From the NCBI GenBank assembly GCA_016297965.1, contig JAEDDP010000001.1, forward strand, positions 139,347-203,346: 64,000 bases of DNA. The letters are read 5' to 3'. How positions within the stretch are numbered: position 1 is the first letter of the stretch; each line of letters starts with the position of its first letter. Origin of the DNA: Alphaproteobacteria bacterium (GTDB lineage: Bacteria; Pseudomonadota; Alphaproteobacteria; Rs-D84; CACZYB01). Both the position numbers and the translations under genes were made by a program. The notes below the pieces were generated by a model. The model saw nothing but the letters and a program-made list of their open reading frames with translations. It did not search any database and was not told where the DNA came from. This document shows positions 4,589 to 38,499 of the stretch, one piece after another.

Positions 4589-5443
4589 TTATTTTACCAT
4601 CTTTTTTTGTATTTTATATGCCTGTACGGTGTTTTTTAAAAGCATTGCAATTGTCATTGGTCCAACCCCACCAGGGACAGGTGTGATAAATTTTGCCACC
4701 TTTGAAACATTATCAAAATCAACATCACCAACCCAACGATTGTTTTTTGTGTCGCGGTTCATTGCAACGTCAATTACTGTTACCCCCTTTTTTACATATT
4801 TTTTGCCAATAAATTTTGGCTTTCCAACGGCGGAAATAAGTATATCTGCATTTGCCGTAATTTCAGCCAAATTCTTTGTTTTTGAATGACAAATTGTAAC
4901 GGTGGCATCTTCGTTTAATAAAAGTTGTGCCATTGGTTTACCAACAATGTTTGAACGTCCAATAACCACCGCATTTTTTGATGCAATATTTACTTTGTAT
5001 TGTTTTAAAAGCTCAATAATACCAAGTGGTGTGCATGGGGTAAGAGCAGGTTTACCAATGGAAAGTAAGCCCTTATTATATATAGTAAAACCATCAACAT
5101 CCTTTTCCGGAGCAATGGCATTTATAACACTGAACTCGTTTATATGTGAAGGCAGTGGAAGTTGAACCAAAATTCCGTTAATATGTTTATCCTTATTCAA
5201 TTTTTTGATTTGTTTTAAAAGTTTTTCTTCTGTAATATCTTCGGGAAGGCGGATTGTTTCGGATTTTATTCCAACCTCAGATGCGTACTTTTCCTTGTTT
5301 TTCACATATATTTGTGATGCAGGATTATTTCCAACCAAAATAACCCTTAATTCAGGTTTTGTTTTAAGGTTTTGAATTTCACGTTTTAATTCCAATCTTA
5401 TTTTTTGTGCAGTCTTTTTTCCATCAATAATTTTTGCTGTCAT
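4589..5443 (-). CDS. folD: Bifunctional methylenetetrahydrofolate dehydrogenase/cyclohydrolase
   Basis: 284 aa; conserved FolD motifs ([38 protein letters not shown]). Confidence 0.95.
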
Positions 5444-5509
5444 TTGTATTTTCCCTTTAATGTTTAAAGTATATCAAATTTTATAATGTTTTAAAAGAAT
5501 TTTTTAACC

Positions 5510-5540
5510 CTTGAAAATTTTTGTTTTTAAGATTATCTAT
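5510..5540 (+). promoter_or_regulatory. Candidate heat-shock (sigma32/RpoH-type) promoter upstream of grpE
   Basis: CTTGAAA -35-like element (5510-5516), ~14 nt spacer, then gattatctat -10-like element; located 30-60 nt upstream of the grpE start. Confidence 0.3.
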
Positions 5541-5572
5541 TATTGTGTAATCAAATAGAAAGGATTTATTGA

Positions 5573-6217
5573 ATGTCAAAGAAAAATAAAAATCACGAAG
5601 ACAAAAGCAAATATTTTGAATTTGGTAAAAATGGGGAACAAAGGGTTGATGAAAATAAAGAATGCAAATGTTCCACAGAAAGTGATGCTTTGGATAATGA
5701 AAATTCTTCGGAATGTGATTGTGGTGAAGGTTGTAAGTGTGCCAAAAAGGGATGTGAAAAGGAAGTTGATTTGATAAACAACCTTAAAGCACAGGTTGAA
5801 GAATGGCAAAATAAATACCTTCGTGCGTATGCCGATGCGGAAAATTCAAAAAGACGTGCGGAAATTGATGCGAAAAATCTTGTTGATTACAAAATTTCAT
5901 CTTTTGCAAAGGATATGATACCACTTGCGGATAATCTTGCCCTTGCAATTTCTTCTATAAAGGGAAAGGTGGATGATGGGGTTTTGACCGGACTTTCATC
6001 CATACAGGATGGCTTTTTAAAGGCACTTGCCCATAATGGAATCGTAAAAATTGAAACGGTTGGAAAAGAGTTGAACCCTTTGGAACATAGGGTTGTTGCA
6101 CAGGTTGAATCCGATGAAAAACCAGAAACTATTGTTCAGGAATTTCAGGCTGGATACAAGATTGGTGATAAGGTAATACGTGAGGCAATGGTTGCAACAG
6201 CTAAACCTAAAAAATAG
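5573..6217 (+). CDS. grpE: Nucleotide exchange factor GrpE with an unusual ~60-aa Cys-rich N-terminal extension
   Basis: C-terminal 150 aa carry GrpE signature (YLRAYADAENSKRR ... coiled coil ... beta domain); N-terminus carries 9 Cys in CKC/CDCGEGCKCAKKGC arrangement. Confidence 0.85.
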   Translation: MSKKNKNHEDKSKYFEFGKNGEQRVDENKECKCSTESDALDNENSSECDCGEGCKCAKKGCEKEVDLINNLKAQVEEWQNKYLRAYADAENSKRRAEIDAKNLVDYKISSFAKDMIPLADNLALAISSIKGKVDDGVLTGLSSIQDGFLKALAHNGIVKIETVGKELNPLEHRVVAQVESDEKPETIVQEFQAGYKIGDKVIREAMVATAKPKK

Positions 6218-6566
6218 TTATGTATCCGGAAAGTTTGCCGAATTTATAGCCAAGTGTTATTTAGGATTGCTTGGCTATTTTGTTATTGCATCAAGGTACA
6301 GTGTTGGGCGTGGCCTTAGTGCCGGTGAGGTTGATATTATTGCCAAAAGGGGTAAGACGATAGTTTTTATTGAAGTTAAAAAGCGGGCGACTTTGCCACT
6401 TGCGATGGAGTCAATTTTTTCACGACAACAGGCAAGGATTTATAATTCGGCGGAGGTGTTTATCGCCAAACATCCCAAATATGCTTCCTTTGATTGTCGT
6501 TTTGATGCGATTTGTTTTAATAAATATTACTTTTTCCGGCATATAAAAAATGCCTGGGGATTTTAG
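6180..6566 (+). CDS. yraN: YraN family (UPF0102) predicted endonuclease; true start probably downstream of the listed ORF start
   Basis: GEVDIIAKRGKTIVFIEVKKR motif typical of YraN/UPF0102; ORF start overlaps the grpE end in another frame. Confidence 0.65.
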   Translation: MRQWLQQLNLKNSYVSGKFAEFIAKCYLGLLGYFVIASRYSVGRGLSAGEVDIIAKRGKTIVFIEVKKRATLPLAMESIFSRQQARIYNSAEVFIAKHPKYASFDCRFDAICFNKYYFFRHIKNAWGF

Positions 6567-6631
6567 GAATATTGTATTATTGCAAGTTATTCTCTTTTAT
6601 TATAATTTTCCAATGAATTGAGGAATATTAT

Positions 6632-7189
6632 ATGAGAACGAAATTGTTTTTACTTTTCTTTTTAGGTATGTTCGTTTTTTCATCTTTTGATGCAAAGGCA
6701 GTGTCTTTTTATTTGGGGACTGGACTTGGTGATTCAAAGGGTAGGGTTGAACATCTTCACCTTGATGATAAGCACGCCTTTGTCTTTTCCATTGGTTCAC
6801 ATTTTAATATTCCTCTTTTCCCCGTTAGGACTGAAATTGAATATTTTAATGCCAAAATGCAAAAGGATGAAATTGGTGATGCAAAGCTTATTGGATACAG
6901 TCTTAACACCTATGTCAATATTCCACTTCTTCCTATATTGGTGCCGTATGTTGGTATTGGATTGGGTACGATGAAGGAAAAGTTTAATAGTGGGGTTTTA
7001 GATTTTTCCAGACAATCAAATTGGAATTTTGTTCCGCAATATATGGTCGGTATTGATTTGGATTTGCCGACTGTACCGGTTGCCGGAAGTATGGAGTATC
7101 GGTATATTGAAAGAAAGTTTGATTTTGATGTGGCGGATTTGAAATCAAAATATCATATCTTTATGTTTAAGGCGCGGGTGAAATTTTAA
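6632..7189 (+). CDS. Small outer-membrane beta-barrel protein (OMP_b-brl / Omp25-like), paralog 1
   Basis: Signal peptide, alternating amphipathic beta-strands, C-terminal aromatic residue (KARVKF); clear paralogy with the next gene. Confidence 0.7.
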   Translation: MRTKLFLLFFLGMFVFSSFDAKAVSFYLGTGLGDSKGRVEHLHLDDKHAFVFSIGSHFNIPLFPVRTEIEYFNAKMQKDEIGDAKLIGYSLNTYVNIPLLPILVPYVGIGLGTMKEKFNSGVLDFSRQSNWNFVPQYMVGIDLDLPTVPVAGSMEYRYIERKFDFDVADLKSKYHIFMFKARVKF

Positions 7190-7290
7190 AAAATTTGGAC
7201 TTTTTACTTAAATATTGACTATATTTATTCTTTCTTTTATAATTTATTTAGGATTTAGGTCCTATATTTAAACTATAAAGGAGAATTTAT

Positions 7291-7815
7291 ATGAATAAAA
7301 AATTATTGTCCGCAAGTTTGATGATTGCATTGTTTGCAGGTTCAGTTCAGGCAGATGCTTTTTATATTGGTGCAGGTCTTGGTTCATCAAAAATTAAGAT
7401 AAAAGAAGAAGATCAATCCGGTGATAAGGATACTGCGTATACTCTTTCAACTGGTTTAAGCATTCCATTGCCATTTATTCCTGTACGTGGTGAAGTTGAA
7501 TTATCACAATTTAAATCTGATGATGTTAAATCACAGGCAGTTGCTGCAAATGCCTATGTTGGTCTTCCATTACTTCCAATCGTAAAACCATACGTTGGTT
7601 TCGGTTTGGCAGATATGAGATTGAAATCAGGTTCAGACAAGACAGATTGGAAAGTTGTTCCACAATATATGGTTGGTTTGGATGTTGATTTACCACTTAT
7701 CCCTGTGGCTGGTGGTATTGAATACAGATATATTGACACATCATTTGAAGATGGTGGTGATAAAATTGATACAAAAATTCAAACCGTTCTTGTAAAAGGT
7801 AGAATTAAATTTTAA
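7291..7815 (+). CDS. Small outer-membrane beta-barrel protein, paralog 2
   Basis: Signal peptide ending AGSVQA; shared blocks with 6632-7189 (VPQYMVG(I/L)D(L/V)DLP..PVAG..EYRYI); ends KGRIKF. Confidence 0.7.
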   Translation: MNKKLLSASLMIALFAGSVQADAFYIGAGLGSSKIKIKEEDQSGDKDTAYTLSTGLSIPLPFIPVRGEVELSQFKSDDVKSQAVAANAYVGLPLLPIVKPYVGFGLADMRLKSGSDKTDWKVVPQYMVGLDVDLPLIPVAGGIEYRYIDTSFEDGGDKIDTKIQTVLVKGRIKF

Positions 7816-7841
7816 TCAAAAATTAAAAAAATTTTGGTTGG

Positions 7842-7865
7842 AACCGTCCTGAAATATGGGCGGTT
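7842..7865. terminator. Intrinsic terminator; member of a recurring CACCGCC/GGACGGTG stem family (inverted orientation)
   Basis: aaccgtcctgaaatatgggcggtt followed by T-run. Confidence 0.5.
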
Positions 7866-7946
7866 TTTTATTGTAAAAAAATGCTTGTTATATACATTAA
7901 ATTATGGTATAATTAAAGGAGAATGTATTAGGAAAAGGAGAAAAAT

Positions 7947-8348
7947 ATGTCTATATTCAAATTCTTAACAAAAAAATCCACTGTGCTTTGTTTGGGACTT
8001 TTGGTTTTGTTTTCCGTTGTTGTGCCGGCAGATGTTTGGGCGCAAGCTTCAACTGCAAGTTTTAGTACCGGCCCATTCCAGGAGTTTTTGAAACGTGCAT
8101 CAAAATTATTTATGCAAACAAGAAATGCTTTGTTCGTTGTGGCTGCATTTGCATTTATTGCCTATGCTTGGACTGCAATTCAAAAAGGTAGTGTTGACTG
8201 GGATAAGATTTTCTATTTAATCGTTGGACTTACAATACTTGGTGTTGCAGGTTGGGTTGTTAGTTATATGGCAGACCCAAAGGGGGGTGCAAATGTTATT
8301 ATGGAAGATTATAAAGGTTTACAAAATACCCAGGGATGGGATGATTAA
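7947..8348 (+). CDS. Possible TrbC/VirB2-type T4SS pilin (orphan)
   Basis: 133 aa; long K-rich signal peptide with AxA-like cleavage (VWA-Q); mature part has two ~20-aa hydrophobic helices separated by a short polar loop, the classic VirB2 topology; no other vir genes adjacent. Confidence 0.4.
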   Translation: MSIFKFLTKKSTVLCLGLLVLFSVVVPADVWAQASTASFSTGPFQEFLKRASKLFMQTRNALFVVAAFAFIAYAWTAIQKGSVDWDKIFYLIVGLTILGVAGWVVSYMADPKGGANVIMEDYKGLQNTQGWDD

Positions 8349-19990: not shown

Positions 19991-21763
19991 TTACTTTATT
20001 CCCAACATTTCATTTAATGATTTAAGCATATCTTCAATGGTATTTTTGTTTTTAAAGCCATCCAAGTTATACTCAGTCATCTTTCTTGCACTTGTTTCCA
20101 ATGCACCAATTACTCCTTCATAATCAAATTCGCCTTCTGCTTTAACATCAGGGGTTCCATTGTAGTTGAATGTGTAATTAACGTTTTCATTTTCAACTTT
20201 TACGAATTCGGAGCAACTGTATTCTAAACTTTCGTTGTTTAGTTGGGCGATTACATTTTTATATTTTTCAATATCTTCGCTTGCCATCAAATTCATATCC
20301 CCTATATTTGGAATGGAGATTTTGTTGTCTGGTTTGCGTTTGAATTTTGCAATTGTGTTAAGGAGTTTATCCAAGTTGTTGTGTGCGCGTGTTAAATCAT
20401 CCCCCTTTATCTTTTTAATTGATGGAAGTTTATCAAGCATAGATAGGGCATTTTGTAGGGCAGAATGTACATCCTTAGTTATTTGGGCATTATCCGCTTT
20501 ACATTCATTTGGCGCAAGGGATGCAAGCAAAGTTTTTATATCATTTTCCATTTGTGAAAGTTCGGAATTTACGTTTTTCTTTTTGTCGGATTTTTCCTTA
20601 ATTACACCATAAATACCCTTGTCTTTAAGTTCCTGAGCTGCATTTGTGCCAAGTGCAACACCAACGGTGTTATTTACGGTAAAGTCAAACAAACCCTTTA
20701 ATGCACCTTTCTTTGAAATTTCCTTTTCAAGGGCAGAGCGATTGTCCACAAGAGTGAATGTTGTGTCTTCCATATCAACCTTGAAATTACGGCCACAGGC
20801 AGTTTCACCTTCGGTTACAAAGGTGTTGGCGATAGTAACAAGTTCACGTGGATAGGTTTGTGATTTTGTGTTAAGGTTTAAATCGGCAAGCTTTCCAATT
20901 TGACCGGAATAATTCCATGAATTATCACCAATGTTTGCAAAAAGGCTTGCGATTGTGGAGGAAAGTTTCTTTTTTCCCTGATACATTGAACCGGTATCCA
21001 AAACGCCGTCGCTGTTGATTGTGGCACCGGAAAGAAAAGTTTTTTCGTCGCTGTCGGACCAATCATCAATGCTGATAGTTTTGTATTTTTCAATGATTGC
21101 ATCGCGACCGCATTTTTTATCAATTCCGCGGTCAAGTTCGGTTATCTTGGAGGCATCAAACATAGCCTTAAATGCGCCGTCGGCAGAGCTGTTTTTTTCG
21201 GCCTGAATATACATAAAGCAATCTTGGGCGGCGGAATATTTCGCCTTTGCCATATTACAATTTTTACGTTCCCTTATTTGTTGTTCGGAATATAAATCCC
21301 AAAGGTTTTCAACCAATTCCTCCTGAAATGGAGAACAAAAATTCATAAGATCCTTTCCATTGCAATTTTTGCCGGAAATTTCGGATGTGATGGACGAAAG
21401 GTTTGGAAGTTCAAAGTTGAATGAAAGTTGAACCTTTACCTTGCTTTTACATGGATAGGTTTCACAATATTTTTTTAATCCTTCGGATACGGCGATGGCG
21501 CATTTTCGTTTTGCAAGAAGGTTTGTGGATGATGGAACCGTGCCACAGATAAGGTTTGCATCATTGGAAATTGTCGTTCCGGTTGTTGTGGTTGTTTGTC
21601 CGGTATAGCGAGAATTTGATGAACTTAATGTTCCGCGTACGGATGTTTTTGACATAGTGGCGGAACGTTTTGAACGGTTTGACCTTCTTGGTGCAGACGA
21701 AACATTGGTATCAAAAAATATACCAACGATTAAAAACAAAGATGTGAACCAAGTTTTTTTCAT
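19991..21763 (-). CDS. Secreted Cys-rich protein, paralog family member (RS-rich post-signal motif)
   Basis: Signal peptide then APRRSNRSKRSA motif; shared blocks with 24961-26457 (NLW..Y...NCN.A.A...A...C, T(E/Y)(F/Y)PR(D/E)L, ...EK(E/K)I..KG.L.G). Confidence 0.7.
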   Translation of the reverse strand: MKKTWFTSLFLIVGIFFDTNVSSAPRRSNRSKRSATMSKTSVRGTLSSSNSRYTGQTTTTTGTTISNDANLICGTVPSSTNLLAKRKCAIAVSEGLKKYCETYPCKSKVKVQLSFNFELPNLSSITSEISGKNCNGKDLMNFCSPFQEELVENLWDLYSEQQIRERKNCNMAKAKYSAAQDCFMYIQAEKNSSADGAFKAMFDASKITELDRGIDKKCGRDAIIEKYKTISIDDWSDSDEKTFLSGATINSDGVLDTGSMYQGKKKLSSTIASLFANIGDNSWNYSGQIGKLADLNLNTKSQTYPRELVTIANTFVTEGETACGRNFKVDMEDTTFTLVDNRSALEKEISKKGALKGLFDFTVNNTVGVALGTNAAQELKDKGIYGVIKEKSDKKKNVNSELSQMENDIKTLLASLAPNECKADNAQITKDVHSALQNALSMLDKLPSIKKIKGDDLTRAHNNLDKLLNTIAKFKRKPDNKISIPNIGDMNLMASEDIEKYKNVIAQLNNESLEYSCSEFVKVENENVNYTFNYNGTPDVKAEGEFDYEGVIGALETSARKMTEYNLDGFKNKNTIEDMLKSLNEMLGIK

Positions 21764-21808: not shown

Positions 21809-22411
21809 TTAGAAATTGTTTATTTCCTTTAACGCCATTTTTATAAGGTCGTTCATTCCAATCATTGGGTTTTTGTTTATAAGGTTCATTACAACCTCAA
21901 AACTTTGCGATCTGGTATAGCCAAGGTTGGAAAGGGCGGAAATTGCATCTTCGGCGATGGAATCGTTTTTCATTTCCCGTGAAATGCCGGCAAGTTCAAG
22001 GTTTATGTTTGTTTTTTGAACCTTGTCCTTTAATTCCTGAACTATACGTTCGGCGGTCTTTTTCCCAATGCCATTTGCCGTTGTGAATGAAACGGCATCA
22101 CCGGATAAAATAGCGGTGGAAATTTGTTGTGGGGTAAGGGCGGAAAGTATGGCAAGTCCGGCCTTTGGTCCGATACCCTGTACCAAAGTCAAAAGGTTAA
22201 AAAATTCGTGTTCGGTTTGGGTGGCAAAACCGTAAAGTGTGATACTGTCTTCACGTACTATTGTTTCAATCCAAAGTGTAAGAGGAGTGTTTAAGGTTAG
22301 TTTTGATATTGTCTTTTGTGGCACAAATACACCATAGCCAACACCGTTCACATCAAGTATTATTTGTGTTTCCGAAAGTGTGTCAACAATGCCCTTTAAT
22401 TTTGAAATCAT
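21809..22411 (-). CDS. ruvA: Holliday junction DNA helicase subunit RuvA (no adjacent ruvB)
   Basis: 200 aa; N-terminal OB domain ILDVNGVGYGVFVP, HhH motifs LVQGIGPKAG, C-terminal domain III. Confidence 0.9.
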   Translation of the reverse strand: MISKLKGIVDTLSETQIILDVNGVGYGVFVPQKTISKLTLNTPLTLWIETIVREDSITLYGFATQTEHEFFNLLTLVQGIGPKAGLAILSALTPQQISTAILSGDAVSFTTANGIGKKTAERIVQELKDKVQKTNINLELAGISREMKNDSIAEDAISALSNLGYTRSQSFEVVMNLINKNPMIGMNDLIKMALKEINNF

Positions 22412-24852
22412 TACCAGTTTATCGCCTTTATTTTTCTTACCATATCATTATAATTGAATGGTGAAATTTTGGAGTTATTGTGAATACATCTCTTTCCAAC
22501 TCCTTCAACTTGTTGCCAATCATCAAGGTTAAAATTGTTATATTGTTTTGAAATATAATCATATTCTTTTACAAGTTCTTTCATCGTTGATTTTTCGTTG
22601 GATGAAATCTTTTCATAATAAGTTTGTTCCTTAAACTTGCTATTTGGTGTAGGTGATATTGAACAACCATACCAACTTTTTGGATTTGTATCGTGAGCGC
22701 ATTTTAATTGAAGTTTTTTGAATATTTCGCAGGCTCTATCCGCTAATTTTTTTAATTCATCAAGATCAGATTTATAATTACACTCTTCTAATTGTTGTTT
22801 TGCATTTTCATACGTTATTGTTTTCCAAACAAAGCTAGTATTTGAACATTGTTTCTTTAATGCATCAAAACAAGCCTTTTGCGCTTCATCGGTATTTAAA
22901 AATACACCTTTTAGTGAAATGCCAAGTTGTGTTTGACACATATTGATTTCTTTTTGAGCATCAATTATCGCATTTAATTTTGTAATGTTTGACTTTATAT
23001 CATCAATAGTTTTTTTGAAATTATCCTTTGTCAAAGTAGGTTTGTCAGATGTATCATTACACAAAGAATTTCTTTTTTCCTTAACTTCATTACATGCATG
23101 TGTATTTAAATATTTTTTTACCTGTGAAATTGAAACTTTGTTTAAAAGTTCACTCTCTTTTTTCATTAAGTCGTTATATTCACTGTAATCAATCCAATTA
23201 TCAACTTTGTTTTTACATTCGTTTGAATAATCATAATTGTCATTACCAGCGGTTGTTGTAAGTTTTAAAGTTTCCTTTATTCCCTTAGTATCTGCATATT
23301 TTTTACATAATTCAGTTTCTATTTTGGTTTTGCAATTTTGTGGATTTTTTCCAATATCAATGGATAATTTGTTGTTGGAGTAAATCTTTTTGGCACCAAC
23401 CAAATAATTGTTGCATTCTGCCAAATCCTTTTCATTTTGTATTGTATTTAAACATTCCTTTACAACCTCATTATTTTCAAGAGTTGTTTTATTTATTGAA
23501 AAATCATTTTTTAATGTTTCTATGTCTGAATCACAGAATTTTTCGGTTCGGCTTTTTGTTGTTATGTAATAATCAAGACTTTTTGTTCCGCTTTTATTTG
23601 GAATAGGAGATACACCGCTACATTTCTCTTGTATTGCTTCCAAAAGGACCAAATTTTTTAAGCAAGTTTCAAGTTTTTCTGCGGCTTTGTCCTGTGATAA
23701 TATTTCATAGCTTTTGCAACTTTTATCTGGTTCAAACATTAACTGTATTTTTGATACGGATTTTGCCAATTTTGCAACTCCATTTTCAAAAATTACACCA
23801 TATCCAGGGTTGTTTGAACTTGCACAAAATGCCTTTGTTGTTTCGTATAAATATTTATAGCCATCAGGACTGTTGTCTTTGAACTCTTTATTTTTAAATA
23901 AGTTTCGTATGTCTGTTGTTAATTTAGAACACTGAGCAAGTTTTTCTATAATACATTCTTTTTGCGTTAATTCATCTTGTTTCTTTTTACACATTTCTAA
24001 TGAAGTAAGTTTTTTAACATCTTCATTTTTACTTATTTTTTGTATTTCAGCTTTACAATCTTCAAGAGCTTTATTTGCTTCCTGTTGTGCCTGTTTTAGT
24101 TTTTCAATATTTTCTTCGGCTGTTGTGGTTTCCGTTGCAATTTTTTTCTTAAGGGCTTCAAGTTGATCATTGGATAGGTTTTCTATGGTTGAAACATCCA
24201 ATTTTACATCCCTTTGATCTGTATTATGTTGTTTAAGGTTTGGAACCTTTTGTTTATTTAATTCTTTGTTCAAATCATCAAAATTTTTTTCGGTGATTTG
24301 TTTTGTCGTTTCTGTTGTTTTGAATAAGTCAGGAATGGAAAGAAGTCCTGCTTCCTCATTAAGTATTTTTGCCAGTGTTCCAAGTCCCGCTTTGATATCG
24401 GCCATTAGACCTGTTTTTGTTTGTGACTCTATTGTATTTATTTTTTCCCGTAATTTTTGGAATATACGAAGTTCTTCATAAAATTCCTTTATTGTCTTAA
24501 AGGTGTCATGTGATGCCGTTTCCGCAATACTTCCAGTAAGTTTTTTTGTGGCTGGTGCCGTTGGAAAACCATTAGGGCAGTCCTTGGTAATGCCTTCTTC
24601 CTTGCAAAATTTAGAGCAATCGCCAGTATATTTTGCATTTTTACAATAGTTATTTTGTAAATCTTCTACTTCTTTAAGAAATGCGTTTGCCACACTGTTA
24701 AGGTTTGTTGCTGTATCAGATGGTATTTTAATTTCAAGGTTTCGTTCAATCCTTGTGTCAGAATCAGACTTTGCACCAGAATCAGAAACCATCCCTGCGT
24801 AAAGAGTAGGGGAAAAGAAAAGACAAAGTAGTGTAGCTATCACTTTTTTCAT
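22411..24852 (-). CDS. Large secreted Cys-rich, Lys-rich coiled-coil protein (hypothetical)
   Basis: Probable start MKKVIATLLCLFF signal peptide; ~40 Cys distributed in CxxC/CK pairs; stop overlaps the ruvA start codon. Confidence 0.6.
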   Translation of the reverse strand: MKKVIATLLCLFFSPTLYAGMVSDSGAKSDSDTRIERNLEIKIPSDTATNLNSVANAFLKEVEDLQNNYCKNAKYTGDCSKFCKEEGITKDCPNGFPTAPATKKLTGSIAETASHDTFKTIKEFYEELRIFQKLREKINTIESQTKTGLMADIKAGLGTLAKILNEEAGLLSIPDLFKTTETTKQITEKNFDDLNKELNKQKVPNLKQHNTDQRDVKLDVSTIENLSNDQLEALKKKIATETTTAEENIEKLKQAQQEANKALEDCKAEIQKISKNEDVKKLTSLEMCKKKQDELTQKECIIEKLAQCSKLTTDIRNLFKNKEFKDNSPDGYKYLYETTKAFCASSNNPGYGVIFENGVAKLAKSVSKIQLMFEPDKSCKSYEILSQDKAAEKLETCLKNLVLLEAIQEKCSGVSPIPNKSGTKSLDYYITTKSRTEKFCDSDIETLKNDFSINKTTLENNEVVKECLNTIQNEKDLAECNNYLVGAKKIYSNNKLSIDIGKNPQNCKTKIETELCKKYADTKGIKETLKLTTTAGNDNYDYSNECKNKVDNWIDYSEYNDLMKKESELLNKVSISQVKKYLNTHACNEVKEKRNSLCNDTSDKPTLTKDNFKKTIDDIKSNITKLNAIIDAQKEINMCQTQLGISLKGVFLNTDEAQKACFDALKKQCSNTSFVWKTITYENAKQQLEECNYKSDLDELKKLADRACEIFKKLQLKCAHDTNPKSWYGCSISPTPNSKFKEQTYYEKISSNEKSTMKELVKEYDYISKQYNNFNLDDWQQVEGVGKRCIHNNSKISPFNYNDMVRKIKAINW

Positions 24853-24960
24853 AATGTTTATTGTATCATTTTTTTTCGTGAAGGGCAAGACCTATTTATC
24901 GTTAGTATTAAAAAAAAGCCCCCAATGAATGAGGGCAATGTTTTAAAAAGTGAAAGTTTG

Positions 24961-26457
24961 TTATTCTTCGGAAGGTTCAGTTGGGGTTGCCGGTGTATCA
25001 CCAGAACCATCAAAGCTTGTATCTCCGGTGCCGTCGCCTTCTTCACTAGAATATGAAGAGGTAGAAGGATTTTCAGGTTCTTTTTCTTCGCCACCTGTTT
25101 CACCGGAAGATTTCTTTTCTTCCCTTAATTTTTTGGCTTCTTCACGTTTATTTTTTCTTTCTGTTGCCTTTTTCTCCTTTTCTTCGGCTTTTTTTGCCTT
25201 ATCTAATTCTTTTTTAACAGATTTTACTTCTTTGTTTAAAGCTTTATAATTTTCATTTAACTGATTAACCTTTTCAACAAAGTCAGGTTCGGTGCTTTCA
25301 GGAATGGCTTCCTTTTGAGCCTTTAATTCTTCTATCTTTTTGGTTAAATCACTTTTCTTTGTTTCATCGGTAATTTCGTTAATTGAGGTTGTTAATGTTT
25401 CTATATTACCGTCAAATTTGTTAAGCATATCTTTTGCAGATTTTATATCCTTTATTTGTTTATCTGCTTCACGTTCTTCTTTGGTCTTTCCGGCCATTGT
25501 GTCATTTGCCCAATTTGTACCCTTGAATGCGCCAATTTGGTCAACAATATATTCCTTTCCACCGGCAAGAAGTCCCTTTTCGTTAATCTTTCTTTCAATT
25601 GAGCTTGTCTTGTCAACAAGGGCGATGTTTGCATCGTAAAGTTCAGTGTAGTTTTTCTCGCCACACATCATATTACCCTCTGATTTAAGGGAGTTTACAA
25701 GTTGGATTAAATCACGTGGAAATTCGGTTGTTTTAAAATCAATTTTAAGGTCAAGAAGTCGTCCATAGGCCGCAAGGTTTGACCAACCGATATTTCCAAC
25801 CTTTGAAAAGTATGAAGTTAGACTGTCCCCAGTTTCGGAGTCGGAAATTTCTTCACCATTTGAAATTCTTTTATATTGTAATTGTATTGCGGATTTTCCA
25901 CATCTGCTGTTTAAATCACCACTTGAAATGACAACTTTTTCATTTTGGCTTGTCAAAACATAACGATAGCATTCTTCAGCAGCAAGTGAGCGGGCAAGGG
26001 CGATATTACAATTTTTTGTATCATTTGCGGCATAGCTGTCGTATGAATTCCAAAGGTTGTTTACCGCTTCTTCAATGAAATTTGCACAATAAATTTCATT
26101 TACCTCAGTTGTATCGGTTGGAAGAATTATCCCCGCATAGGCTTCGGTTGCATTTTTACATTTGTTGTTTCCACAATAGTTTTTAAGAGATTTAACAACC
26201 ATTGCAGTACAGTTTCGTTTTGCACTGGCATCGGTGATTGGGGCAACCTGTGTATAATCGGTTGTTCGTACGGTTGTGTCGGCAACGGTAGCATTTACGG
26301 ATGTTGTTGTACCGCTTACCTTTACATTACCACTAAGACTGCGACGAGATGAGGCAGAACGTGCGGAAGAACTGTTCCTTCTGGAATTTCTTGCGGCGTC
26401 TGCATTTTGATTGAAAAGTACAGCCAATCCCAATAATGCAATAAGTTTTTTAGTCAT
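24961..26457 (-). CDS. Secreted Cys-rich protein, paralog family member
   Basis: Signal peptide ADA-A then ARNSRRNSSSARSASSRRS; paralogous blocks with 19991-21763 and 26472-27977; acidic/K-rich low-complexity C-terminus. Confidence 0.7.
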   Translation of the reverse strand: MTKKLIALLGLAVLFNQNADAARNSRRNSSSARSASSRRSLSGNVKVSGTTTSVNATVADTTVRTTDYTQVAPITDASAKRNCTAMVVKSLKNYCGNNKCKNATEAYAGIILPTDTTEVNEIYCANFIEEAVNNLWNSYDSYAANDTKNCNIALARSLAAEECYRYVLTSQNEKVVISSGDLNSRCGKSAIQLQYKRISNGEEISDSETGDSLTSYFSKVGNIGWSNLAAYGRLLDLKIDFKTTEFPRDLIQLVNSLKSEGNMMCGEKNYTELYDANIALVDKTSSIERKINEKGLLAGGKEYIVDQIGAFKGTNWANDTMAGKTKEEREADKQIKDIKSAKDMLNKFDGNIETLTTSINEITDETKKSDLTKKIEELKAQKEAIPESTEPDFVEKVNQLNENYKALNKEVKSVKKELDKAKKAEEKEKKATERKNKREEAKKLREEKKSSGETGGEEKEPENPSTSSYSSEEGDGTGDTSFDGSGDTPATPTEPSEE

Positions 26458-26471
26458 AATTTTTTCTCCTT

Positions 26472-27977
26472 TTAATCATCCAAAGTTGTAAATTCTGTTT
26501 GGTTTAGTTCCTTATTTTCTTCCCTTCCAAGCATCTTTTTAAGGGCAGTTTTTGAAAGGTTTACGTTTTCATTTTCCATATCGTAATCAATTGTTTTATA
26601 TTCAATGGTTGCATTTTCACCAACACCGGTTTTGCGAACCTCAATTATACGATATTGTTTTTTCTCGCTTTCCTCAGGTGTGAGAAGAAGGTATTTCCCG
26701 GTTTTAAGTTCAGATTTCTTTTCCTTTAATGTACTATCGGAAATATCACCGCTTAGTGTAAGTACGGCAATGCTTGTATCCGTATTAACATCTTCATCTT
26801 TTACACCACCAATGATACCTTCACGGGAAAGCTTATTCATACGGTTTTCACCAACGATAACAGATGCCTGGTTAAAGGTCCAGGTTTGTGCGCCCTTTAA
26901 TCCACCCTGTTCATCAATTGCCCGAGCAAGAGATGACTTTTCACGGGAAACCTGAATATCGGTTTGATGCATTGTTGCGGTATATTCGGAACCGCAGGCA
27001 GGTCCAACTTCGTTTAGGTGAGTGTTTAGAATTTGGGTTATTTTTACCTCCCAATCGTTGGATTTGTCAGTAATTTTTCCATCCAAATAATTACTTACAA
27101 CTTCAATTCCATCGGCAGGGCTTAATTTTCCGGCATTTATATATAGTCGTGGAATGTCGGTTGGGAAAATTATACCCTTTTGTTCCTCATCCCCAAAGAG
27201 TTTGGTCCATTTTGCTTGGAGACCAGCAATTCCGCAAAGGCTGTTTAACTTGCTTTCAATAGAATCAACCGCACCGGTTGCACGTCCGGCGGAAAGTACG
27301 GCCTGAAAACATTCGTTTGATGCCTCCGCCACAACACGTTTAAGTTTGCAATTTGGTGAATTTGCACCGGTTATTTGGTAATCATCGGCAATGCTTTTTG
27401 TTAAATCCTCAGTAAACATATAGCAAGCCTTATCATACTCATACGCCTGACCTTCAATATATACGGTAATGCCAGAAGTATCAAAGTTTATGAAAAGGTC
27501 GTTTGCATCATAACATTTAAGTTTACCATCTTCGCCAATGCCGTTGTTGAAATAAGATTCATCACAGGCATTTTGAATTGCATTTATAAGGGCATTTCCA
27601 CAAGCCTTTCTTTGTGAAACGGCAAAAGAATCACTCTTTTTAATACATTCATTCGTGTTTGATGCATTTATTATATAATTTGTTTCATCAACACATTCGC
27701 ATGCGGTTCCGGCGGAATTTTTTCTGGCATTTGCACCACATTTAAGGAAAGCAGTTGTTTTTTTACCGATACATGCCGGATCGCCAGGTTTTGCACACTT
27801 TATTGTCTTTATTCCGGATGTTGTATTTTTAAGTCCGGTGGAAGTTTGTGCGTTCGTTGCGGAATAAATTGAACGGGCGGATCTTCGGTTTGTACGTGCA
27901 GAATAAACATCACTACCAATTAGAAGTAATGGTAGAGCCATAATTTTTATATAAAAGTTTTTGTTCATTTTTTTCAT
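26472..27977 (-). CDS. Secreted Cys-rich protein, paralog family member
   Basis: Signal peptide then SARTNRRSARS motif; shares the ACG...SLARAIDEQGGLKG block with the other family members. Confidence 0.65.
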   Translation of the reverse strand: MKKMNKNFYIKIMALPLLLIGSDVYSARTNRRSARSIYSATNAQTSTGLKNTTSGIKTIKCAKPGDPACIGKKTTAFLKCGANARKNSAGTACECVDETNYIINASNTNECIKKSDSFAVSQRKACGNALINAIQNACDESYFNNGIGEDGKLKCYDANDLFINFDTSGITVYIEGQAYEYDKACYMFTEDLTKSIADDYQITGANSPNCKLKRVVAEASNECFQAVLSAGRATGAVDSIESKLNSLCGIAGLQAKWTKLFGDEEQKGIIFPTDIPRLYINAGKLSPADGIEVVSNYLDGKITDKSNDWEVKITQILNTHLNEVGPACGSEYTATMHQTDIQVSREKSSLARAIDEQGGLKGAQTWTFNQASVIVGENRMNKLSREGIIGGVKDEDVNTDTSIAVLTLSGDISDSTLKEKKSELKTGKYLLLTPEESEKKQYRIIEVRKTGVGENATIEYKTIDYDMENENVNLSKTALKKMLGREENKELNQTEFTTLDD

Positions 27978-31335: not shown

Positions 31336-32052
31336 ATGAGACAAGTATACGATGAAGGTAAAAAGAAAAGCATTTGTTTAGAAGTGAAAAACTTGCAGGA
31401 TGAAGATAAATCTTCGTTGTCGGATATTTTATCGGGTATTTGTGAAAAGTATAATGTCGGAACAAATGAAGTTTATGCATGGAACAAAAAGTTTGGAATG
31501 ATTTTTGATAATAATCTTTTTTCAAAGGAAGAAAAGTTTCAAATTTGTTATATCGTTGCGGAACTTATTCTTTGTAATGTTGGTATTGCTGAGGCGGTTT
31601 CTCTCCTTGCACAAAAAAATGGTATTGAAAAGCATGCAATCTATAAATGGAATAGAGAGCTTAAACTTTTTAAAACATCAAAAAAATATACCGATGAAGA
31701 AAAGAAAAATATCTGTCGTCAGATTGCGGTGCTTGCACATGGTGCAGATAATCCCGCATTTGCAGTGCGGATGATGGCGGAAAAATATGATGTGTCTGTT
31801 AAATCAATATATACATGGAATCAAAAATACAGGATTTTTTCAACGATTGATAATGGAAGAACAACACCTTTTGGTCGTGAATTTTGTATTAAAGTCCTTA
31901 AAGAAGTGGCTGAGCTTGGCGGTAATGTTCCGGCGATAGAAGCGGTTGCAAAAAAGTATGATATTTCTTTTTCCGCGATATATGCATGGAATCGTATATA
32001 TAAGGTTTTTATGACAAGAACTTTGTTGTTATCGGATAAAAATAGCCGATAG
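31336..32052 (+). CDS. Protein composed of four tandem IS3/OrfA-like (HTH_Tnp_1-type) helix-turn-helix repeats
   Basis: Four ~55-aa repeats each ending (A)xKY(N/D)(V/I)(S/G)xxx(I/V)YxWN(K/R/Q)xYxxF, resembling the ...GVSxSTLYRWVKQY motif of IS3-family OrfA. Confidence 0.55.
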   Translation: MRQVYDEGKKKSICLEVKNLQDEDKSSLSDILSGICEKYNVGTNEVYAWNKKFGMIFDNNLFSKEEKFQICYIVAELILCNVGIAEAVSLLAQKNGIEKHAIYKWNRELKLFKTSKKYTDEEKKNICRQIAVLAHGADNPAFAVRMMAEKYDVSVKSIYTWNQKYRIFSTIDNGRTTPFGREFCIKVLKEVAELGGNVPAIEAVAKKYDISFSAIYAWNRIYKVFMTRTLLLSDKNSR

Positions 32053-34065: not shown

Positions 34066-34157
34066 GTCGTTTGTTATCATAAAATATCCTTGATTATTTT
34101 CCTTTGCCTTTATATAATTCATTTTGGGTAAGGGTAATTTTTTATAAAGAGAGAAAA

Positions 34158-36893
34158 ATGTTTAAAAAGTTTTTAAGTCTTGGTACCGTTTTATTGCTTG
34201 GTGGATGTTTGACAACATCGGATACCGGTTCGCGTGTTTCGGGGTCTTCATCATCGGGTGGTTCACATTCATCCGGTGGAAGTTCGGACAGAAATCATAA
34301 TAACAGTTCAACAAAGCTTAATCGTATTTCAAAGATTGCCGATTTATCAAAGGATATTGCCGAAGAAAATAAATCCCGTGTAACAAGTGCGTTTAAAAAG
34401 TATAATGAAAATAATTCAACCGGAAAAATTTCCTTTACCACAGAAAATTTTGAATATGCGGATGACATTTTGAAAAATCAAAGTACGGTGAATAATTTGG
34501 CGGGATTGTCATCATCGTATGATACGGTACTTTCCAATTTATCAAACTGGAATTCAACGCTTTCAGGTGTATCACAAAGTTTAGCGGATGCAACACAAAA
34601 TCTTAATTCTAAAAAATCGTCGTTATCACAAAGTCAAACTGCACTTGACCAAACAAAGACAGACCTTATTGCAGAGGAGCAAAAGTTGGATGGGTATTAT
34701 GCAGAGTTGGCAAATTTGTGGAAATTAAAATCTGAATATGGTTCGAATGATTACAGTGGTCCACAGATGTCCACTTTGTTGGGAATGATAAGTCAGAAAC
34801 AACAACAAATAAATAGTTCAGAATCCACTTGTTCTTCGTATCGTAATTCAATATCTTCGTACGAGTCCACAATATCATCCCTTAACAGTGAGATAAGCTC
34901 CGTTCAACAAGATGTGAATAATTATACTTCACAAAAGGATGAAGCGACCGCAAAGGTTAATCAGTATACAAATGAAAAGGCAAGTTTGGAGGATACGATA
35001 ACCACGGAAATACAAAAATTTGATGCGAATTTTAGTGCATCAAAATACGGGGATGCCCTTTCAACCGAAATTAAAAATCGGGTGAATATATATTCCGGAT
35101 ACTATATTATGTCAACAAGACTTGCCAATGTGAAGGTGTTGCTTGATGCCTATGATGAAGGAAAATATACATCCGGTGGAACATCATATACCCGTGGAAG
35201 TTATTATGAAAACAAGGCATTGTTGAATGATTACAACAAGTATTTGCTTGGCAAAAAACGGTCGGATTTTTCAAGTGATAAGGATTATGCGGATTGGCTT
35301 TCGGCCAATGCAACATCATTTTCTGGAAACAGGGCAAGTTATACAAGTGATGCTGCATATATTACCGCGGTGCAGACGGCATATTTTAATTGGGTAAAGG
35401 TTTTGTCCGGTTTGGAAAATTATGCAAAATCTTCATATTCAGCGGATGATTATAATGCGATAATGAATGCACTTAGTTCAAAGCGGTCAAGTTTGGCGAA
35501 TGTGGTTAAAACACTTGAAGATGTGATGGTTGGCGCCCTTAAAAAACTTGATAGCACATATACAAGTGATGAACTTCCGTTGACACTTTCGCAATACATT
35601 GCATTTTTCAGAAACCAGAAAAAGATTTTATCGGCCATAAGTGGTGTTGATTATATTTATGATGTGACGGTTCATCCGGAAGGTGCAGTTTCGGCAACAT
35701 CAACCGGTGATGAAAGTTCAAAATCGGTTTTGACCTATGACTATAATTCCGCCATTTCAGATTACATTTTGAATTTTAGGGAAACTTCAAAAAGTGGTAC
35801 AAACAAAAATGACACGGTTGTAAGTTTTAAGGCGAGTGATTTTAGTGCAAGTGGTAAGGCGTACGTTGCCACATCAACAAGGACCGTTTCAAAGACAGAA
35901 GATTACTATACATTCCTTTCTGGTGTAGAGTCGTATGTGTACGGGGGTGGGGTATTGGATGCAGAAGTTGAATCACGTAGAAAGTACGCACTTTCTGTAT
36001 TTACTCGTGTTCAAAATGGCACTGCAACAGATGCGGAAAAGGCTGTTTTAAAACAATGGCTTGGTTCCAATTTTTCATCGGATATTACAAGTGTTGCCTT
36101 TTCATCCCTTACCGACAATGAAAAGTTGAAATTCAATTTGGCAATGTATATGCTTGGCAAGGAAAAGCCAGATTTCACCGTTGACAAGGCACGAATTATT
36201 ACCGATACGGTAAAGCTTGGCGGAACGGTTGCGGGACTTACATTTTCCGATTTCGGTATTTGGAGTATAAAGGGTATGAATAAGTATACCGGAGATGAGC
36301 AACTTTTGGCAAAGAATTTGGATGGAAAGTTTTCATCCGATACCTATCACGTGCAATATCCGTTTATAAGTGGTATGTCGCAATTTAAGCAGGGGTATGC
36401 TTCCGATTCAACACTTGCGGCTGGAAAATCCGTTGTATTTAAAGGAAATGCACTTGGTGTTGCGACACTTTCCGGAAATAATCAGAGTGATACCTTGGTG
36501 AAGGATTTGTCGGGTTCGGCTACACTTACCGTTGCGAATGATTTGCAAACAAAAAATGGTGTTTCATCCATTTATGGAAATTTAAGTGTGAACTTTGATA
36601 ATTACTATTCATTCAAATTTGCCGATATTGATGTGGCAAGCAAGAATGGATTTAAGTCATCCAATGTTTCAATTGAAAGTTCAAGCAAGGTTGCGAATAC
36701 CGATAAGTTCCAATTTGGAAGCTCGCCAACGCTTAGTGGTTCGGTTACCGGACAAATGTATGGTTTGGAAACGAATCGTCCAACAGAAGCGGTTGGTATG
36801 TTTGATGTGTCATCAAAAACAATTCACAATGACCCAACAAATTCAACCTATTCAAAACTTACCGTTGAAGGTGCGTTTGGTGTAAAGAAGTAA
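34158..36893 (+). CDS. Giant surface lipoprotein (candidate Slam-dependent SLP) with TbpB/fHbp-type C-terminal 8-strand barrel signature
   Basis: Lipoprotein signal MFKKFLSLGTVLLLGGC; Ser/Gly-rich linker; ~800 aa novel region with coiled-coil stretches; C-terminus GQMYGLETNRPTEAVGMF...EGAFGVKK matches the GxFYGxxAEExGGxF...xFGAK(K/R) signature of TbpB_B_D/Lipoprotein_5 domains; translationally coupled to the next gene. Confidence 0.6.
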   Translation: MFKKFLSLGTVLLLGGCLTTSDTGSRVSGSSSSGGSHSSGGSSDRNHNNSSTKLNRISKIADLSKDIAEENKSRVTSAFKKYNENNSTGKISFTTENFEYADDILKNQSTVNNLAGLSSSYDTVLSNLSNWNSTLSGVSQSLADATQNLNSKKSSLSQSQTALDQTKTDLIAEEQKLDGYYAELANLWKLKSEYGSNDYSGPQMSTLLGMISQKQQQINSSESTCSSYRNSISSYESTISSLNSEISSVQQDVNNYTSQKDEATAKVNQYTNEKASLEDTITTEIQKFDANFSASKYGDALSTEIKNRVNIYSGYYIMSTRLANVKVLLDAYDEGKYTSGGTSYTRGSYYENKALLNDYNKYLLGKKRSDFSSDKDYADWLSANATSFSGNRASYTSDAAYITAVQTAYFNWVKVLSGLENYAKSSYSADDYNAIMNALSSKRSSLANVVKTLEDVMVGALKKLDSTYTSDELPLTLSQYIAFFRNQKKILSAISGVDYIYDVTVHPEGAVSATSTGDESSKSVLTYDYNSAISDYILNFRETSKSGTNKNDTVVSFKASDFSASGKAYVATSTRTVSKTEDYYTFLSGVESYVYGGGVLDAEVESRRKYALSVFTRVQNGTATDAEKAVLKQWLGSNFSSDITSVAFSSLTDNEKLKFNLAMYMLGKEKPDFTVDKARIITDTVKLGGTVAGLTFSDFGIWSIKGMNKYTGDEQLLAKNLDGKFSSDTYHVQYPFISGMSQFKQGYASDSTLAAGKSVVFKGNALGVATLSGNNQSDTLVKDLSGSATLTVANDLQTKNGVSSIYGNLSVNFDNYYSFKFADIDVASKNGFKSSNVSIESSSKVANTDKFQFGSSPTLSGSVTGQMYGLETNRPTEAVGMFDVSSKTIHNDPTNSTYSKLTVEGAFGVKK

Positions 36894-36896
36894 GTA

Positions 36897-38381
36897 ATGT
36901 TTTTTGTTGGGGAACTTTTTCGCGTATTGTTTTATGTCCTTTTTATAGGATGTTTTTCCTTTTTGTTTGATGTGGGCGCCCGTGCATCGGTTGGTGATGT
37001 GGAGGGGGAGGAGCTTGTTTTTGACTCGTCAAAGGTTGGTGTGCCTTTGCCTGCGGAAGTGTCTGTTAAAAAAGAAGTGGTTCCGGCAAATGTAGAAAAA
37101 GCCACGGTGGATGATAATTTTTCCGTATCAAAGGAGAATGCCCTTCTTATTGCAAAGAATATGGTTGCAAGGGGGATGTTTGATGATGCCCTTGTCATCC
37201 TTAACAAAATACAATTTGATATAGAAACAGAGCGTGATTTGGAATTAGAGCGGTGGTTCCTTTTGGGGCAAATTGCAATGGCAAAATCCGATTATGACGG
37301 GGCGATTGCTTTGTTTCGGAAGATATTGGATGTTAATCCGGACCTTTCACGGGTGCGGTTGGATTTGTCCCTTGCCTATATGCAAACGGGTTCGTATATA
37401 AGGGCAAATTATAATTTTCGGCTTGCCATGGCGGGGAATTTGCCGGATACCGTGTCCGAAAATGTTTCAAAATTTCTTTATATTCTTCGCGCAAATAAAA
37501 ACTATGGCTTTTGGTTTAATTTTGGAATTGCACCGGATTCAAATATAAATAATACCAGATCCGGAACACAATGTGTAAATACAATTTTTGGTGTGCTTTG
37601 TAATGATTTACCCGGTGCGGAGGACAAGGTTGGATACAACTTTGCCTTTGGTGGTGATTATGAATTTCGGTTGTCCGAAAGGTGGCGGATAAAGTCAGAT
37701 TTGGGGATGAACATTTCAAAATATGATGAACGGGATTATGATGATTATTCGGTTTCTGCGTCGGTTGGTCCACGATATATTTTTGATGGTGGTGAACTTT
37801 ATTTGGGGCTTTCGGGGCAACGACGATATTTGGCACATACTCCGTATAGCTATTTTATTGGTGCGAAGATGTCCGGAAACTATGATATTACGCAACGGCT
37901 TTCGTTTGGGGCATCGCTTTATATTTCACCAATGAGATATGATAATGTTAAGGCGTTGGATGGGAACAACTGGGGTATTGCTTCACAATTTGCATATTCT
38001 CTTACTCCATCAAAGTATATGATTTTCAAATCTGGGTATGACAGGGAAGAAACCGATGCGCCAGCGTACAGGAATGGCAAGGTTAATTTTGGTATTGGTT
38101 TTGGGGCGGAACTTTATGGTGGTTATTCAATCTATTTGGAACCATCGGTTGTGTTTACAAATTATGATAATCCACGCCCTTATATAAAGGATAATTTTTA
38201 TCAACCGATTAAGCGAAATGATACAACGTGGAAGTATCAAATAACACTTGCAAACAAGAAAATAAATCTTTATGGATTTACTCCAACCTTTGGTTATACC
38301 TATACTTCACGGAACAGTAATGTATGGCAGGAGGAGTATTCAAAGCATTCATTTAATTTTGGTTTTTCACAACGTTTTTAA
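36897..38381 (+). CDS. Slam-like (DUF560) outer-membrane protein: N-terminal TPR domain + C-terminal beta-barrel
   Basis: 494 aa (Neisseria Slam1 is ~490 aa); signal peptide; TPR-like helical repeats (residues ~80-200); C-terminal half is alternating-strand barrel ending in aromatic F (FGFSQRF); start 3 nt after the lipoprotein stop. Confidence 0.6.
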   Translation: MFFVGELFRVLFYVLFIGCFSFLFDVGARASVGDVEGEELVFDSSKVGVPLPAEVSVKKEVVPANVEKATVDDNFSVSKENALLIAKNMVARGMFDDALVILNKIQFDIETERDLELERWFLLGQIAMAKSDYDGAIALFRKILDVNPDLSRVRLDLSLAYMQTGSYIRANYNFRLAMAGNLPDTVSENVSKFLYILRANKNYGFWFNFGIAPDSNINNTRSGTQCVNTIFGVLCNDLPGAEDKVGYNFAFGGDYEFRLSERWRIKSDLGMNISKYDERDYDDYSVSASVGPRYIFDGGELYLGLSGQRRYLAHTPYSYFIGAKMSGNYDITQRLSFGASLYISPMRYDNVKALDGNNWGIASQFAYSLTPSKYMIFKSGYDREETDAPAYRNGKVNFGIGFGAELYGGYSIYLEPSVVFTNYDNPRPYIKDNFYQPIKRNDTTWKYQITLANKKINLYGFTPTFGYTYTSRNSNVWQEEYSKHSFNFGFSQRF

Positions 38382-38499
38382 TTGACATTTATTTTTTTTG
38401 GATGATAATCACAAACTGTATTTTGTGGCGTTGAATAAACTTTTTTATAGTATATTGTTCATATTATTTTGCCGAAATTGTTGATTATAAAAAGAGGTT

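Follow-up and report, generated by a model that had tools for sequence, protein, structure and literature searches.

Slam proteins, the outer-membrane proteins of type 11 secretion systems (T11SS), have been reported in all classes of Proteobacteria, and the lipoproteins encoded next to them have an eight-stranded barrel in common (PMC5449769). Slam1 alone moves unfolded TbpB into proteoliposomes, with Skp assisting (PMC9090332), and the specificity of the T11SS is set by the C-terminal barrel domain of the cargo (bioRxiv 10.1101/2023.03.15.532718). This constant barrel is combined with highly variable N-terminal effector regions, alpha-helical ones included; Pls of Haemophilus parahaemolyticus is the one cargo with an effector region of the alpha-helical kind that experiments have verified, and this 525-aa alpha-helical lipoprotein is surface-exposed only with its T11SS partner TepS (PMC12282271). 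Among Alphaproteobacteria, T11SS are known from the Sphingomonadaceae (subcluster 1C) and the Rhodobacteraceae/Roseobacteraceae (cluster 3), none of them experimentally tested (PMC8406197, PMC12282271). Here we describe a lipoprotein gene and, directly after it, a Slam gene in a 64-kb stretch of an alphaproteobacterial contig (JAEDDP010000001.1, assembly GCA_016297965.1). The whole stretch is referred to as the window, coordinates are those of the window, and the window protein is the 911-aa lipoprotein encoded at 34158-36893.

As in the described Slam/T11SS systems, the Slam of the window is encoded right after a lipoprotein with a C-terminal eight-stranded barrel, and it shares with Neisseria Slam1 and Slam2, NilB, HrpB and TepS an N-terminal TPR domain and a full-length DUF560 barrel. 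Its 494 aa are close to the approximately 488 aa of Slam1. The two open reading frames (ORFs) of 911 and 494 aa and the LLGGC lipobox stand in the sequence exactly as an earlier note on this DNA had read them; the cargo protein begins with MFKKFLSLGTVLLLGGC, its TAA ends at 36893 and the ATG of the Slam gene lies at 36897, leaving a gap of 3 nt. We regard it as highly probable that the pair forms a two-gene type 11 secretion (Slam) module that places a lipid-anchored cargo on the cell surface. Lipidation, Slam dependence, surface exposure and an adhesive role we infer by analogy with the known systems. The pair comprises the following features, in which both signal peptides are as read from the sequence.

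34090-34118, forward strand: promoter-like site, TTGATT-17-TATAAT, 10 of 12 consensus matches, about 40 nt 5' of the lipoprotein start codon; a pattern match from a consensus scan only
34158-36893, forward strand: cargo gene, candidate surface lipoprotein (T11SS/Slam cargo), 911-aa ORF
34158-34208, forward strand: signal peptide with lipobox, MFKKFLSLGTVLLLGG followed by C (LLGG before the Cys), Cys17 being the predicted lipidation site
34209-34331, forward strand: Ser/Gly-rich flexible tether by composition, residues 18-58; relatives have an equivalent Gly/Ser-rich linker after the lipobox
34332-34517, forward strand: N-terminal segment, residues 59-120, partly shared by the family
34518-35237, forward strand: Ser/Gln/Asn-rich coiled-coil insert, residues ~121-360 (~240 aa), lineage-specific and hypervariable
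35238-36170, forward strand: middle domain, residues 361-671, family-conserved and aligned in most family members
36171-36428, forward strand: handle or pedestal beta-sheet, residues 672-757, with strands 4-16, 26-41 and 57-68 of the AlphaFold2 model
36429-36890, forward strand: beta-barrel of eight strands at the C-terminus, residues 758-911, ending GAFGVKK; presumed Slam recognition domain
36897-38381, forward strand: Slam/T11SS outer-membrane protein gene, 494 aa, PF04575
36897-36986, forward strand: presumed signal peptide, hydrophobic N-terminus, MFFVGELFRVLFYVLFIGCFSFLFDVGARA followed by SV
37131-37490, forward strand: periplasmic TPR domain, residues ~79-198, with TPR_19 and TPR_2 matches
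37515-38378, forward strand: DUF560/SlipAM membrane barrel, residues 207-494 by Pfam match, ending FSQRF

Profile matches confirmed the product of 36897-38381 as a Slam/T11SS outer-membrane protein, in line with the DUF560/Slam assignment made before. PF04575 (SlipAM, formerly DUF560) scored 107.5 bits at residues 207-494 (cut-off 22, E 1.2e-30), the match spanning profile positions 5-288 of 288, and TPR_19 (32 bits, cut-off 25) and TPR_2 (27.6 bits, cut-off 27) scored above their cut-offs over residues 117-167; the TPR_Slam model reached 29-31 bits, under its own cut-off of 35.2. A sequence search of the PDB with the protein returned only TPR proteins, consensus TPR proteins among them (matching residues 116-177), and no solved Slam structure. 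Using a word-indexed search, 328 homologues were found, many of which carry the name 'surface lipoprotein assembly modifier' or DUF560 domain-containing protein; those so named come from metagenome-assembled genomes (MAGs) labelled Alphaproteobacteria or Rickettsiales, and the best match outside the species itself shows 49% identity. The terminal QRF, typical of outer-membrane proteins, is common to the homologues. At the other end, the presumed signal peptide is atypical, with almost no positive charge in its n-region and a lipobox-like FIGC inside; homologues, about 45 aa shorter, have canonical Sec signal peptides. Owing to the weak n-region the start codon of the Slam gene and the cleavage site are placed presumptively, and the cleavage site is uncertain.

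The cargo's C-terminal domain was identified through its predicted structure. An AlphaFold2 model built from an alignment of the C-terminal 240 aa (a 29-sequence profile, A2) had a pLDDT of 92.9 and a pTM of 0.88, and in it the eight strands of the barrel come after three long strands that make up the handle. A Foldseek search of the PDB with this model gave marginal matches only. In structure comparisons its fold matched TbpB, LbpB, HpuA and hemophilin, and up to 158-174 residues were aligned with TbpB and LbpB lobes, versus 139 with the barrel-only C-terminal domain of NHBA. The modelling therefore bears out the structural expectation of the earlier note, an eight-stranded barrel with a handle, and supports the view that the domain is the handle and soluble barrel of Slam-dependent surface lipoproteins. 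That note had located a TbpB/fHbp-type signature in the last ~60 aa; the strings GQMYGLETNRPTEAVGMF and EGAFGVKK are present there, but handle and barrel extend over ~240 aa, and the passenger accordingly measures ~650 aa instead of the ~800 aa claimed.

Sequence comparison alone does not reach this relationship. The match to PF01298 (TbpB_B_D) that had been anticipated was absent from the full protein, its last 399 aa and its last 199 aa at E values up to 10. Four distant members of the family had sub-threshold PF01298 matches, the best with 19.8 bits (cut-off 26); in the short members P0146 (E 1.2e-3), P0153 (E 0.014) and P0151 (E 0.045) the sub-threshold alignments were near full-length and provide a weak sequence bridge. 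Searching the PDB sequences with the last 249 aa, the A2 profile or a full-length family profile (A1) returned nothing credible; a match to FimA (4q98, E 7e-4) in these searches was judged to be due to chance. The alignment of A2 with an approximate fHbp sequence by hhalign had a probability of 0.2. With NHBA, the TbpB C-lobe, LbpB, fHbp, HpuA, hemophilin and PmSLP, sequence similarity thus lies under detection by Pfam, HMM and hhalign.

The gene pairing, which the earlier note had described for this locus, recurs in other genomes. A lipoprotein gene was found directly 5' of the Slam gene at nine other loci of this Slam clade, representing seven distinct contexts, with a spacing of mostly 0-54 nt and of ~66 nt in a Desulfovibrio MAG (L017). 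The Slam-adjacent cargo at L006 is 29% identical to the window protein over 490 aa (E 4e-42), and the lipoproteins at L009, L010, L017, L018, L019/L020 and L021/L022 match the A2 profile. Within the window the 3-nt spacing suggests co-translation of cargo and Slam. The sole promoter-like site for the pair is the one 5' of the cargo gene, and the consensus scan detected none comparable to it in the gap between the genes; a scan of the region found no convincing terminator between them and one weak terminator-like match, inside the cargo coding sequence. A longer cargo ORF starting from a TTG at 34104 is unlikely to be the real one, because the promoter-like site overlaps this start and homologues begin at a MFKKF-type Met. 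The dN/dS values, 0.20 for the cargo gene overall and 0.06-0.09 for the Slam gene, indicate that both genes are functional and under purifying selection.

Relatives of the cargo were collected by searching 1.84 billion cluster representatives exhaustively with HMMER, with residues 301-911 as the query; 35 of them matched at E ≤ 1e-3, of which 22 reached E ≤ 1e-10. The window protein is thus no orphan, having relatives at 25-44% identity. Most family members come from gut and rumen alphaproteobacterial MAGs; lengths range from 135 to 909 aa when fragments are included, and from ~330 to 909 aa in intact members. Most intact members have a lipobox, then a Gly/Ser linker, and a C-terminal end of the GAFGVKK type. 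A pattern scan detected the lipobox in 22 of 37 aligned sequences, and some of the others are N-terminally truncated or miscalled. Faster searches were far less productive: a word-indexed search with the full lipoprotein found three near-identical proteins only, a first scan of genome contigs with the whole lipoprotein found nothing, and a word-indexed search with the last 249 aa gave no match at E ≤ 0.1 even though the 96% identical P0001 is in the same database. The last result is probably not biological but an artefact that the word prefilter produced.

Occupancy in the A1 alignment shows which parts of the window protein the family shares, namely lipobox and tether, residues 59-120 (occupancy 0.45-0.61), ~361-671 and 672-911. 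It is mostly 0.03-0.12 in the coiled-coil insert (0.41 at 241-270 and 0.24 at 331-360), so the insert is largely missing from relatives of 650-700 aa, and these lineage-specific ~240 aa account for the unusual length of the window protein. The insert has a heptad-like hydrophobic periodicity of 3.5 residues (z 3.4), contains 1% Pro and has no tandem repeat at the DNA level. Pfam and NCBIfam gave only coiled-coil-type noise on the lipoprotein, at residues 59-310, and the middle domain (361-671) had no Pfam or PDB sequence match, profile search included. The proposal that the passenger is entirely novel goes too far, since a small family shares residues 361-671 and the coiled-coil insert alone is lineage-specific. 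Strain variation is concentrated in the insert: 27 of the 35 amino-acid differences from P0001 fall within residues 59-360, and dN/dS is 0.40 in the insert versus 0.09-0.11 in the remaining protein. By these ratios the insert is relaxed or diversifying, as expected of a distal exposed segment.

Several observations weigh against reading the pair as a module for surface display. At L011 (214-3737), L013 (4657-8153) and L014 (~5065-8117) orthologous cargo genes lie directly 5' of MATE and trmA with no Slam gene within 6 kb, and the gap between cargo and MATE is only ~90-125 bp. These loci come from alphaproteobacterial MAGs of gut and rumen, respectively of CALXYK01, CAKQHZ01 and CACZYB01, in which MATE and TrmA share 52-72% identity with those of the window, and the Slam gene at the MATE/trmA locus is a clean presence/absence polymorphism. 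Slam adjacency is thus not obligatory and the dependence of the cargo on this Slam is unproven. Moreover, a single-sequence AlphaFold prediction of the Slam protein, made without an alignment, had a pLDDT of 38 and did not model the barrel, for which 14 strands would be expected, and no passenger domain matches anything known in Pfam, PDB or profile searches, which leaves the passenger's function a guess. Orphan Slam genes also occur in the same clade, at L007 (8001-9329) and L023 (451-1791); they are 42-44% identical to the Slam gene of the window, lack an adjacent lipoprotein and, in L007/L008 and L023/L024, occupy a conserved context of the order Slam - Na/Ca exchanger - SspB. One of the L023/L024 orphans is from a Hadza human-gut sample, and a ShlB/TpsB two-partner secretion gene lies near the orphan in L007/L008. 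Neisseria Slam1, for its part, serves substrates from unlinked loci. From the Slam-less cargo, the orphan Slams and this precedent it could be argued that adjacency is incidental, the lipoprotein being an ordinary outer-membrane one that faces the periplasm, or depending on another Slam, with the adjacent Slam handling other substrates. We consider this very unlikely, as the order of lipoprotein then Slam recurs at the nine loci with cargo matching one C-terminal profile, an A2 profile search of the 64-kb window found no second protein with a cargo-type barrel, and the 3-nt spacing points to co-translation.

Other readings accept the export and differ on the fate or role of the cargo. It might be freed into the medium or onto vesicles after export by cleavage of the tether, and act as a secreted factor; T11SS do secrete soluble cargo as well, and the lipoprotein Pls is detected in supernatants only together with its T11SS partner (PMC12282271); a 40-aa Ser/Gly tether could be protease-sensitive. 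This is improbable, given that the lipobox is kept across the family, which argues for a membrane-anchored state, and that there is no linked protease gene. A receptor for nutrient capture, or a hemophore-like protein, of the TbpB, LbpB, HpuA or hemophilin type, passing a host ligand to a TonB-dependent transporter, would agree with the fold of the C-terminal domain and with the nutrient-capture role of most characterised Slam cargo (PMC5449769, PMC8406197). Such a role is nonetheless unlikely, and we assign it a slim chance: among the scanned window neighbours and the related loci examined, no TonB-dependent receptor, TonB or haem/iron gene adjoins the cargo or its family members, and the neighbours in the window are housekeeping genes. 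The passenger is coiled-coil or helical and matches no ligand-binding domain in Pfam, PDB or profile searches, and the A2 profile finds one barrel per protein; in contrast to TbpB-type cargo, the window protein therefore has no second handle-barrel lobe. Finally, the C-terminal domain could be taken for an integral eight-stranded membrane barrel like OmpA, OmpW or PagL, an anchor independent of Slam. This is extremely improbable, since all 17 higher-scoring structural matches are soluble lipoprotein barrels, with alignments that reach into the handle, and the cargo ends in GAFGVKK with no aromatic beta-signal residue, whereas the Slam protein ends in F; an N-terminal lipid anchor and a membrane barrel in one protein would also be redundant.

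For the two-gene Slam module that we favour, the following mechanism is proposed. The cargo would be exported by Sec, lipidated at Cys17 and delivered to the outer membrane. Its handle and eight-stranded barrel (barrel residues 758-911) would be recognised by the co-transcribed Slam, with its periplasmic TPR domain and DUF560 barrel, which would thread the still-unfolded chain through the outer membrane. The cargo would stay lipid-anchored on the cell surface via the Ser/Gly tether, with the conserved middle domain and the long strain-variable coiled-coil stalk pointing outward. As a reasoned guess, the cargo most likely serves a gut commensal as a surface fibril or as a protein of the adhesin type. 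A bolder proposal, which we put forward as doubtful, is that these proteins form a T11SS cargo class of their own in Alphaproteobacteria of gut and rumen: a stalk tethered by lipid, its coiled-coil tip hypervariable between strains, serving as a host-, mucus- or phage-facing fibril and bearing a barrel beyond current domain models. The presence or absence of the Slam gene might then reflect recent capture of the translocon by the cargo, with sister lineages exporting in trans or otherwise.

Among verified cargo, Pls is the nearest in architecture, a lipoprotein with a long alpha-helical region before the C-terminal barrel, encoded beside the T11SS gene of TepS (PMC12282271). The likeness is one of description, not of alignment: Pls has 525 aa and charged tandem repeats of the EEARKA type, whereas the window protein has 911 aa, is Ser/Asn/Gln-rich and non-repetitive at the DNA level, and has in addition the conserved 310-aa middle domain. 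The hosts of NHBA- and TbpB-type cargo are beta- or gammaproteobacterial pathogens, and the host of the window pair is a gut commensal alphaproteobacterium. Unlike the named Slams, the Slam of the window falls in a large clade of uncultured alphaproteobacterial sequences of which no member has been experimentally tested. The earlier note overstated matters in speaking of a lineage where Slams are uncharacterised, as they had already been mapped in all proteobacterial classes and in alphaproteobacterial families (PMC5449769, PMC8406197, PMC12282271). Because Slams were known in Alphaproteobacteria and alpha-helical T11SS cargo had been demonstrated, what the finding adds to a known system is a cargo family and a host group that are both new; the kind of system is not.

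The novelty lies in a barrel that is too divergent for PF01298 and that screens based on domains or BLAST would miss; a host group of uncultured gut and rumen Alphaproteobacteria; a length of 911 aa with a hypervariable coiled-coil insert; and a Slam gene present or absent at an otherwise conserved locus. To our knowledge, 911 aa exceeds the length of any experimentally verified T11SS cargo. The accepted picture of the Slam mechanism is unchanged. Screens that rely on PF01298/InterPro domains, or on BLAST to known cargo, miss whole cargo families, and T11SS cargo diversity is consequently undercounted, especially in uncultured animal-associated Alphaproteobacteria such as those of human Hadza and rumen metagenomes. 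The A2 profile found lipoproteins beside every cargo-linked Slam examined in the clade and could seed a new domain model. The window protein also offers a test of size limits, namely whether a Slam can pass a ~650-aa passenger with a long coiled coil.

Turning to the wider locus, the neighbours of the pair are the housekeeping genes tag, fabF, MATE and trmA. The order tag - cargo - Slam - MATE - trmA is conserved in five metagenome contigs of the same species, and cargo homologues of 96% (P0001) and 94% identity sit in this shared synteny. The host is an alphaproteobacterium, as the earlier note had supposed: related MAGs bear the title Alphaproteobacteria, and there is a TrcR gene in the vicinity. 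The window has a G+C content of ~36%. Horizontal transfer of the pair was considered and gave no signal, GC and GC3 being near the values of neighbouring genes, and no RNA elements or tandem repeats were found among those sought in the region. Directly 3' of the Slam stop codon is a further promoter-like site (38382-38409, TTGACA-16-GATAAT, 11 of 12 matches), and this near-consensus site suggests that MATE is transcribed separately from the cargo-Slam pair.

Elsewhere in the window, three paralogous secreted proteins with a mutual identity of 23-27% are encoded on the reverse strand at 19991-21763 (590 aa), 24961-26457 (498 aa) and 26472-27977 (501 aa). In all three an Arg/Ser-rich stretch comes after a signal peptide, and the two that were scanned, of 498 and 501 aa, have no Pfam domain. 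An unrelated 825-aa ORF lies among them (22411-24888, reverse strand); its N-terminal part includes a hydrophobic stretch, and it too is without a Pfam domain. Neither it nor the three paralogues match the A2 barrel profile. Between the window and the related contigs L001/L002, the 498-aa paralogue is 78% identical and its 501-aa neighbour 98-99%. Lastly, a 238-aa protein encoded between rpoD and fabF (31336-32052, forward strand) consists of about four HTH_Tnp_1-like repeats, each ending in Y(A/T/K)WN(K/R/Q), and its gene is kept in L001/L002, where it is 95% identical at the nucleotide level and has a higher dS than any other gene of the neighbourhood.

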